Shown here: one piece after another, positions 5,754-8,742 of the stretch
Position numbering within the stretch: the first letter of the stretch is position 1
How the letters are laid out: each line of letters starts with the position of its first letter
Assembly: GCA_037134915.1 (NCBI GenBank)
Contig: JBAXLJ010000001.1
Location: 101,484-165,483 of the forward strand
Length of the DNA: 64,000 nucleotides
DNA from: Candidatus Falkowbacteria bacterium
Lineage (GTDB): Bacteria > Patescibacteriota > Patescibacteriia > Patescibacteriales > UBA12465
Reading direction: 5' to 3'
Position numbers and translations under genes: made by a program
The notes under the pieces: model-generated
What the model was told of the DNA's origin: nothing
The model's database searches: none
Seen by the model: only the letters and a program-made list of their open reading frames with translations

Positions 5754-8742
5754 TCAACAAGAGTATATGGTGGATGCCTTGACATAAGATAACGATGAAG
5801 GACGTAGCAGCCTGCGATAAGCTGCGGTGAGGTGGCAAGCAACCTTTGACCCGCAGATCTCCGAATGGGGAAACCCGCCACGTTGAACACGTGGAGAGCT
5901 CTGACTTTTAGTCGGAGCTAGAAGACCCGGTGAACTGAAACATCTTAGTAACCGGAGGAAAAGAAAATAATAATCATTCCCCGAGTAGTGGCGAGCGAAA
6001 GGGGAGGAGCCTAAATCTATCAAACTGCGAATTTGAAACGGCCTAGCCGCGTAGGATTTTGAAGGATCCAAGTCCACATGTTTCATAGACGTTGCAAGAG
6101 ATGGCGTTTGTTCCTTGGAGTGAACGAGACGGAGTCATAAAAGAGAATTTTTAATTGAACAAGCTGGAAAGCTTGGCCAGAGACGGTGATAGCCCCGTAA
6201 GTAAAAAGAATTTTCTCTCCGTGGTCATTTTCTTAAGTAGGGCGGAACTCGTGAAATTCCGTCTGAAGCAGGGTCGACTATGACCCAAGGCTAAATATAT
6301 CTTATGATCGATAGTGAACAAGTACCGTGAGGGAAAGGTGAAAAGCATCCCGAGAGGGAGGTGAAATAGTACCTGAAACCATATACTTACAAGGAGTCGG
6401 AGCCTGAGTTTACTCGGGTGACGGCGTGCCTATTGAAGAATGAGCCAACGAGTTTGTTCTATGTGGCTTACATAATTGCCGTTTGGCAAGCATGTACAGT
6501 GAAAGCGAGGGTTAATAGCCCGCATTGTGCTTCACTTTTACGCATTAGTTTACTAGTGCGTTAAAGTGAAGTACACGTCGCATGGACAAGACCCGAAGCC
6601 GGGTGATCTAACCATGACCAGGTTGAACTGTGTCGAAAGACACAGGGAGGACCGAACCCACGCACCGTGCAACATGCGGGGATGAGTTGTGGTTAGCGGT
6701 GAAATTCCAATCGAACTCGGCAATAGCTGGTTCTCCTCGAAATAGCTTTAGGGCTAGCCTCGGATGCTGACTATAGGGGGTAGAGCACTGGATGAGGGCG
6801 GGTCGCAAGATACCGTCTTCAATCAAACTCCGAATACCTATAGGTGGAGTCCGGGAGTCAGACTATGGGGGCTAAGCTTCATCAGTCAAAAGGGAAACAG
6901 CCCAGATCACAATCTAAGGTCCCAAAATCTATGCTAAGTGTAAAAGGTGGTGTTGCGACCGCGACAGTTAGGATGTTGGCTTAGAAGCAGCCATCATTTA
7001 AAGAAAGCGTAATAGCTCACTAATCAAGTTGTTTCGCGCCGAAAATTTACCGGGGCTAAGCATAGTACCGAAGATGTGAACTCTATAATTTATTATAGAG
7101 TGGTAGAGGAGCATTCTGTTCAGCACTGAAGCTGTAGCGTGAGCTATGGTGGAGCGGACAGAAGAGAGAATGTTGGCATGAGTAGCAAAAAGGCGGGTGA
7201 AAACCCCGCCCATCGAAAATCCAAGGTTTCCTGGGCAACGCAAATCGACCCAGGGTTAGTCGATCCTAAGGCATAGCTAATGTAGTGTTAGCGTAGCCGA
7301 TGGCAGAGCTGGTTAATATTCCAGCACTACTATAATTTTCCGAAGGAGTAACGCAGTTCCAAGGTTAGAACGGGCTATGGTATGTCCGTTGCTTGCTACA
7401 AGAAATGATCCAGGTAAATCCGGGTCAACAATTTCAAGTGGTCGGCTGAAGATGAAGTCGCAAGATGGATTCAATCTAGTGGCGGAATTGTCCAGAAAAA
7501 CTTCTAGGGCTAAGGTTATAGTAACCGTACCGCAAACCGACACAGGTGGATGAGGCGAGAAGCCTCAGATGTACGAGAGAATCTTCGTTAAGGAACTCGG
7601 CAAAACAGCGACCGTAATTTCGAGATAAGGTCTGCCCTCGCAAGAGGGCCGCAGCTAAAGAGCTCAAGGGACTGTTTACCAAAAACACAGCTCTCTGCTA
7701 ACTCGCAAGAGGATGTATAGAGGGTGATGCCTGGCCAGTGTCCGAACGTTAAGAGGAGAGGTTAACCTTTAGGGGTGAAGCTTTGAATCCAAGCGCGGAT
7801 GAACGCCGGCGATAACTATAATCGTCCTAAGGTAGCGAAATTCCTTGTCGGGTAAGTTCCGACCTGCACGAATGGCTTAACCACTTGAGCACTGTCTCAA
7901 CGAAGAACTCGGTGAAATTGCAATACGAGTAAAGATGCTCGTTAAACACAGTTGGACGAAAAGACCCCGTGAAGCTTTACTATAGCTTGATATTGAAATA
8001 GGGATATGCATGTTCAGAATAGGTGGGAGCCTTCGGGCACCAGTGAGATACCACCCTTGTATATTTTTATTTCTAACCCCTTTTTAGGGGGACAGTGTCT
8101 GGTGGGTAGTTTGTCTGGGGCGGATGCCTCCCAAAAGGTAACGGAGGCGTTTACAAAGGTTGGCTATCCCGGAATGGAAACCCGGGAGATAGTGTAAAGG
8201 CACAAGCCAGCTTTACTGCGAGACTTACCAGTCAAGCAGTTGCGAAAGCAGAACTTAGTGAACCGACCGTTCGATATAGGACGGCGGAAGATCATCGGAT
8301 AAAAGCTACTCCGGGGATAACAGGCTAGTCACGCCCAAGCGTCCACAGCGACGGCGTGGTTCGGCACCTCGATGTCGGCTCGTCGCATCCTGGGGGTGGA
8401 GAAGCTCCCAAGGGTTGGGCTGTTCGCCCATTAAAGCGGCACGCGAGCTGGGTTCAGACCGTCGTAAGACAGGTCGGTCTCCTATCCACTGTGTTCGTGG
8501 AAACTTGAAGAGGCCCTTCCTTAGTACGAGAGGACCGGGAAGGACGAAGCTCTAGTGTACCTGCTGTTCTACCAAGGGCATTGCAGGGTAGCTACCTTCG
8601 GTTAAGATAAGCGCTGAAAGCATATAAGCGCGAAGCTGTCTCTAAGATTAGGTTTCATAGACTGGTCCGAGAACAGGACCTTGATAGGCCATACGTGTAA
8701 GTCCAGTAATGGACTCAGCGGAGTGGTACTAATAAGTCGTTT
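5754..8742 (+). rRNA. rrl: 23S ribosomal RNA (ends approximate, +-10 nt)
   Basis: Conserved 23S strings run throughout: GGTGGATGCCTTGAC, GTACCGTGAGGGAAAGGTGAAAAG, GGGGATAACAGGCT, and sarcin-ricin AGTACGAGAGGACCGG. A perfect 21-nt flanking processing stem pairs 5733-5753 with 8743-8763. Confidence 0.95.

Follow-up and report, generated by a model that had tools for sequence, protein, structure and literature searches.

Lineage-typical reduction of helix 78 in the 23S rRNA L1 stalk of a Falkowbacteria genome segment, with the stalk core retained

Reduced L1 stalks in the candidate phyla radiation and the stalk of the window

The L1 stalk of the ribosome clears deacylated tRNA from the E site, and natural minimal versions of it therefore show which of its parts are dispensable. 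In bacteria of the candidate phyla radiation (CPR), four regions of 23S ribosomal RNA (rRNA) are lost, one of which, '23Gap3', is helix 78 (H78) of this stalk (Tsurumaki et al. 2022, PMC9297842). Its loss was described for Magasanikbacteria, Uhrbacteria, Falkowbacteria, Microgenomates, WWE3 and Berkelbacteria (PMC9297842). A survey of der, rplA (the uL1 gene) and H78 in 505 CPR genomes (Mol Biol Evol 2025, PMC12641178) found ABY1, WWE3 and Microgenomatia to be without H78, of which a stem of 2-3 bp or 6-8 bp remains (PMC12641178). The same survey called H78 and rplA complementary in CPR: ABY1 loses H78 and keeps rplA and der, whereas Paceibacteria keep H78 and lose rplA (PMC12641178). Here we describe the L1 stalk encoded by the 23S rRNA gene in a 64-kb stretch of DNA from a Candidatus Falkowbacteria bacterium (hereafter referred to as the window), in which H78 is cut down to three base pairs.

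Falkowbacteria are placed in the GTDB class ABY1, order BM507. The CPR affiliation of the window, already suspected in an initial annotation made from the sequence alone, was confirmed by its RpoB (55069-58434), which is 100% identical to an NCBI Candidatus Falkowbacteria bacterium RpoB and whose next matches are from Falkowbacteria and Patescibacteria.

Helices of the window 23S rRNA were assigned by Infernal structural alignment to the bacterial 23S model. The annotated 23S gene of E. coli (locus L122, 701-3603) served as the reference and was aligned pairwise with MAFFT. The initial annotation had pointed to an interval of only 18 nt (CCTTCGGGCACCAGTGAG) between the conserved strings GGTGGGAG (8022-8029) and ATACCACCC (8048-8056), gave an interval of about 43 nt for E. 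coli, and allowed the short interval at most a UUCG-capped mini-stem. The strings, their coordinates and the spacing are as claimed, the same two anchors lie 43 nt apart in L122, and the mini-stem consists of 3 bp and UUCG at 8029-8038. Both anchors sit at the right place. The further suggestion that H77 and H78 are both missing went too far, in that the anchors themselves contain H77 (GGUGG/CCACC), which is intact, and only the distal part of H78 is gone. Infernal deleted 25 consensus positions, exactly between the two sides of H78 and all of them distal, and the MAFFT alignment with E. coli contained the identical 25-nt deletion. Thus, where E. coli has an H78 hairpin of 35 nt (2127-2161), the window has one of 10 nt. 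The minimum free energy structure computed by RNAfold for 7994-8073 was likewise predicted to contain the H76 stem and the GCC-UUCG-GGC hairpin. The parts of the stalk are as follows.

7995-8012, + strand: 5′ strand of H76, 18 nt, the L1-stalk stem (Infernal consensus; paired by RNAfold with 8056-8073; compensatory changes)
8013-8021, + strand: loop A, UUCAGAAUA, 9 nt, equivalent to E. coli 2111-2119, with T-loop 1 and platform residue 2112 (alignment; role from Lehmann 2013, PMC3664808)
8022-8026, + strand: 5′ strand of H77, GGUGG, partner of 8051-8055 (Infernal)
8027-8028, + strand: H77/H78 junction, GA, the same as in E. coli (Infernal)
8029-8038, + strand: H78 remnant, GCCUUCGGGC, 3 bp (GCC/GGC) with a UUCG tetraloop (25-position deletion; predicted hairpin; relatives; published alignment)
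8039-8050, + strand: loop B, ACCAGUGAGAUA, 12 nt, equivalent to E. coli 2162-2173, with T-loop 2 (UGAGA) and platform residue A2169 (Infernal and alignment; role from PMC3664808 and PMC5689012)
8051-8055, + strand: 3′ strand of H77, CCACC (Infernal)
8056-8073, + strand: 3′ strand of H76, 18 nt (Infernal, covariation, RNAfold)
8077-8090, + strand: shortened H79, CCCCUUUUUAGGGG / CCCCTTTTTAGGGG, 14 nt as compared with about 25 nt in E. coli (Infernal, MAFFT)

Since H77 and both loops of the tRNA-elbow platform are present at canonical length, the L1-stalk head, which the initial annotation had taken to be missing, is, as read from these alignments, trimmed rather than missing. The same annotation had called H79 shortened and placed its start at 8067; the shortening, by about 10 nt relative to E. 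coli, was confirmed, and the start was moved to 8077.

Conservation of the H78 stub among relatives

The window was compared with the published 23Gap3 stalk of ABY1, Microgenomatia and WWE3. The two share the affected helix, the boundaries of the deletion, the 2-3 bp category of residual stem and the UUCG cap. Moreover, Falkowbacteria are named explicitly among the 23Gap3 lineages, and identical sequences have been published: rows reading GGUGGGAGCCUUCG--GGC[A/G]CCAGUGAGAUACCACCC in Supplementary Data 3 of PMC12641178, for example those of GCA_002869265.1 and of the Uhrbacteria assembly GCA_002774875.1, equal the window across the stub. With an H78 stem of 3 bp without an internal loop, with H76, H77 and loops A and B kept, and with its position in ABY1, the window stalk belongs to this group. 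It differs in that H79 is also short, and some other Falkowbacteria differ from the window in keeping an H78 of 6-8 bp. The short H78 is real, ordinary for the lineage and already known.

Relatives were sought by scanning one genome per GTDB species with the loose pattern GGTGGGAGN{6,30}ATACCACC. At least 120 loci matched; among those listed, 105 were chance matches outside rRNA and 15 lay inside 23S genes, a sample that gives no estimate of the frequency of the stub. The same 18-nt interval, with CCUUCGGGC[A/G]CCAGUGAG, was found in at least 11 independent metagenome-assembled genome (MAG) assemblies (11 of the 15 listed 23S loci), among them MAGs named Falkowbacteria, Uhrbacteria (one) or Patescibacteria. 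Among the matches listed, the 23S genes sharing this interval are 75-87% identical overall to that of the window, the closest (85-87%) being from MAGs of a Patescibacteria group bacterium and Candidatus Falkowbacteria.

Longer H78 forms of 6-8 bp were seen in locus L098 and in a Falkowbacteria row of Supplementary Data 3 (GCA_001778165.1), and their occurrence fits a gradual loss of H78 within class ABY1. As we read the published alignment, a lineage with a truncated H78 never lacks a stub of 2-3 bp with a stable cap, either UUCG or GCAA (a GNRA tetraloop). Such retention would be expected if both the fold of the junction and uL1 depend on the base of H78. In four published rows that we verified as Paceibacteria, H77 reads GUGGG/CCCAU, a compensated change, as compared with GGUGG/CCACC in the window. 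This contrast between a drifted H77 in a class lacking uL1 and the canonical H77 of the window is only suggestive.

A stalk alignment consisting of the window, the pattern-scan loci and E. coli (17 sequences) was used to assess covariation in H76. Changes on both sides were found in 15 of the 18 pairs, and 88% of the cells were paired, as compared with 40-50% when the partners were slid by 1-3 columns. The covariation and the excess of pairing indicate that the H76 stem is under selection in the H78-truncated lineages. These data bear on the possibility that the short H78 is an artefact of assembly or annotation, or a mark of a decaying rRNA pseudogene. MAG assemblies can collapse rRNA regions, and nothing more specific speaks for it. 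Against it, the 23S gene is full length and high-scoring and is followed by a 5S gene, the same stub recurs in many independent assemblies as well as in published data, and compensatory substitutions preserve the stem that flanks the stub. The two genes are as follows.

5746-8752, + strand: 23S rRNA gene, full length (RF02541, 2505.8 bits, model positions 1-2925)
8839-8953, + strand: 5S rRNA gene, downstream of the 23S gene (RF00001, 96.2 bits)

We rejected this explanation, to which we give next to no credence, on the grounds of the intact 23S-5S pair, the recurrent stub and the covarying H76.

The short H79 has a narrower distribution than the H78 stub. Among the loci compared, L052, L057, L062 and L098 alone share it with the window; H79 is of full length in L077, L079, L106 and other loci. 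The full-length H79 of other H78-truncated relatives has a conserved UGAAUC loop. Neither of the two CPR rRNA papers (PMC9297842, PMC12641178) mentions H79 in its main text.

Two further observations came from the scan. Four MAG contigs titled 'uncultured Gammaproteobacteria bacterium' (L027, L075, L076 and L091) carry a CPR-type H78 stub in a 23S gene that scores much better against the window than against E. coli (e.g. 1946 as compared with 1175 bits); these records look mislabelled, or the contigs mis-binned. A Limisphaerales MAG (L093) has a non-CPR, Verrucomicrobia-type 23S gene with a partly shortened H78, the interval being 30 nt and the stem about 9 bp.

The tRNA-elbow platform, the uL1 site and the presence of uL1

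The platform that contacts the tRNA elbow is built from the loops 2111-2119 and 2162-2173, and H78 takes no part in it (Lehmann 2013, PMC3664808). In the window, loops A and B have 9 and 12 nt, the lengths found in E. coli. T-loop 1 is AGAAUA (8016-8021) as compared with AGGAUA in E. coli (2114-2119), with the extra U2118 kept, and T-loop 2 is UGAGA (8044-8048) as compared with UGAAA (2167-2171). Thus, both loops and both T-loops of the double T-loop module of the L1 stalk are present. Of the pair 2112/2169, the platform residues for stacking on tRNA G19:C56, the window keeps A2169 (as A8046) and has U (U8014) at 2112, as compared with G in E. coli. As for the protein, domain I of uL1 binds H77, the junction and basal H78, and domain II binds loop B (summarized in PMC5689012). 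Every element of this contact surface (PMC5689012) is retained in the window.

Two other RNAs help to interpret a stalk of this shape. The L1 mRNA operator binds uL1 although it consists of no more than one helix, a junction and the basal part of another helix (PMC5689012). Its affinity is lower than that of rRNA because the operator loop that matches loop B is shorter (PMC5689012); loop B of the window is of full length. The apex of T-box Stem I, which has nothing corresponding to H78, uses a double T-loop to dock the tRNA elbow (PMC3664808). Unlike the ribosomal stalks, both are separate RNAs. Since the operator and the T-box apex do without H78, a long H78 is dispensable for uL1 binding and for tRNA-elbow docking.

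We consider it highly probable that the window shows a lineage-typical reduction of H78 in the L1 stalk of Falkowbacteria, in which the core of the stalk is kept and uL1 is still encoded. According to this explanation, the distal 25 nt of H78 have been deleted and the three basal pairs are sealed by the very stable C(UUCG)G tetraloop. The working parts, which comprise H76 as lever arm, H77, the junction GA, the H78 base and both loops, are kept; loops A and B would interlock as a double T-loop and so form the platform on which the elbow of the E-site tRNA stacks. uL1, presumably encoded elsewhere in the genome, would still bind H77 and loop B together with the junction and the H78 stub, in a manner resembling its binding to the small mRNA operator without a long H78, and the stalk would still eject deacylated tRNA. 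What is lost would be a peripheral surface arm together with the contacts that the N-terminus of uL1 makes (in the Der-bound assembly intermediate) and possibly a contact of bL9. Such a loss would be in line with the reduction of surface rRNA seen generally in CPR ribosomes.

An opposite interpretation, one of the two predicted in the initial annotation, is that the shortened stalk marks a ribosome without uL1, as in the uL1-less Parcubacteria. That subgroup is reportedly attributed to Brown et al. 2015. The statement on which the prediction drew, that uL1 has been lost in a subset of CPR, is correct for Parcubacteria/Paceibacteria (PMC9297842, PMC12641178), and the uL1-less Paceibacteria ribosomes, likewise CPR ribosomes with a reduced stalk component, illustrate how variable the stalk is in this group. 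We did not find rplA in the 64-kb window by tblastn with E. coli and T. thermophilus uL1 queries, and the same queries gave no match in the fetched loci of the relatives; nor were uL1, bL9 or Der found by Pfam annotation of about 50 open reading frames (ORFs) of the window. In the window and in two relatives, the rpoB context is FtsK, Mur ligase, rpoB and rpoC, without rplKAJL upstream of rpoB. As rpoB is not preceded by rplKAJL, the usual place of rplA is uninformative. The absence of rplA from the window also says little, because its 64 kb cover little of the genome, the size of published Falkowbacteria assemblies being 0.85-1.67 Mb. A scan of metagenomes with an alignment of uL1 gave no loci other than ones sharing 58-92% identity with the B. 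subtilis query; judged from that identity, these are probably Firmicutes-like.

Loss of uL1 is further opposed by the complementarity of H78 and rplA in the 505-genome survey, in which it is the uL1-less Paceibacteria that keep a full H78 and ABY1 that keeps rplA (PMC12641178). Paceibacteria have lost the protein and kept a full-length helix, whereas the window has lost the helix and ABY1 reportedly keeps the protein (PMC12641178); being of ABY1 and having a truncated H78, the window is not of the Paceibacteria type. Its Falkowbacteria/ABY1 membership and the retention of the entire uL1 contact surface point in the same direction. We therefore regard the predicted loss of uL1 as probably wrong, and the reading of the stalk as that of a uL1-less ribosome as very unlikely.

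Several points nevertheless weigh against the explanation that we favour, beginning with the absence of rplA from the window and the rpoB context just described. The presence of uL1 in this genome is drawn entirely from published class-level statements and should be taken as provisional. The conservation of its binding site is a weak indication of the protein, because such sites stay conserved even in lineages without uL1, in which no significant change of the binding sites was noted (Tsurumaki et al., PMC9297842). Residue 2112 is U rather than G, and the geometry of the platform is assumed from the sequence. The invariance of H77 among the collected relatives was imposed by the search pattern and is uninformative.

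It is also conceivable that uL1 is present and the stalk functionally altered, the binding of uL1 being changed or remodelled (for instance at its N-terminus) or another protein filling the space of distal H78. An altered mode of binding was the second possibility in the initial annotation, and loss of the contact between H78 and the uL1 N-terminus could bring it about. The uL1 N-terminus touches H78 in a 50S assembly intermediate (PMC12641178), and in the H78-less Microgenomates, WWE3 and Berkelbacteria uL1 has N-terminal insertions or internal deletions, often with no bL9 (PMC9297842). In addition, the present sub-lineage has a short H79, the helix at the stalk base. On the other hand, the unusual forms of uL1 were listed for lineages other than Parcubacteria (Tsurumaki et al., PMC9297842). 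We consider such altered binding unlikely, albeit less so than the loss of uL1. With both H78 and H79 minimised, the sub-lineage may have undergone further remodelling of the stalk of a kind that class-level surveys do not resolve, such as an altered N-terminus of uL1, a bL9 that is lost or docks elsewhere, or a protein specific to the lineage that takes up the freed surface; we give this suggestion a low probability, slightly below that of altered binding.

The reduction of H78 with the stalk core retained agrees with published work, in that distal H78 is expendable, whereas the core that binds uL1 and the platform for the tRNA elbow persist. The loss of the helix and the loss of the protein have been reported in CPR as alternative paths and not as coupled events. 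The value of the present analysis is mainly one of annotation: the window carries an intact, functional-looking Falkowbacteria 23S gene, not a degenerate one, and its short stalk is no sign of missing uL1.

Other features of the 23S gene and of the window

The window 23S gene, of 3007 nt, is longer than the 2925-position Rfam model. Relative to the Rfam bacterial consensus, domain I contains insertions of about 52 nt (6025-6076) and about 27 nt (6108-6134), near E. coli 270-290, and further insertions of 16, 27 and 12 nt occur at 6477-6565. The domain I insertions coexist with several trimmed surface helices in the same 23S rRNA. The pairwise alignment with E. coli contained other deletions around 1707-1768 and around 2794-2813, which, by our own placement, appear to match the gaps that Tsurumaki et al. 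describe at H63 and H98 (PMC9297842). No 16S gene lies upstream of the 23S-5S pair (5746-8953), and the rRNA operon is therefore split; the genes preceding the pair (window 1-5745) encode FtsH, NusB, RNase III and a PilT-like ATPase.

A tRNA-Phe(GAA) gene at 35645-35982 on the - strand, within a tRNA cluster of Ile, Met, Phe and Pro, is split after U33 by a 266-nt group I intron (35950-35685; found by Rfam, RF00028, 95.7 bits). The exons are 35982-35951 and 35684-35645. ARAGORN misses the unspliced gene, and in-silico splicing gave a clean tRNA-Phe of 73 nt.

Two runs of four ORFs each (180-231 aa) are located at 9029-11671 and 18514-21088 (- strand). None of the ORFs in these runs matched a Pfam family above the curated cut-off. 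On reading, their N-termini look hydrophobic. The runs contain weak paralogues: the ORFs at 9029 and 10411 are 26% identical (E = 7e-21), and those at 19070 and 20534, as well as those at 18514 and 20534, also match each other.

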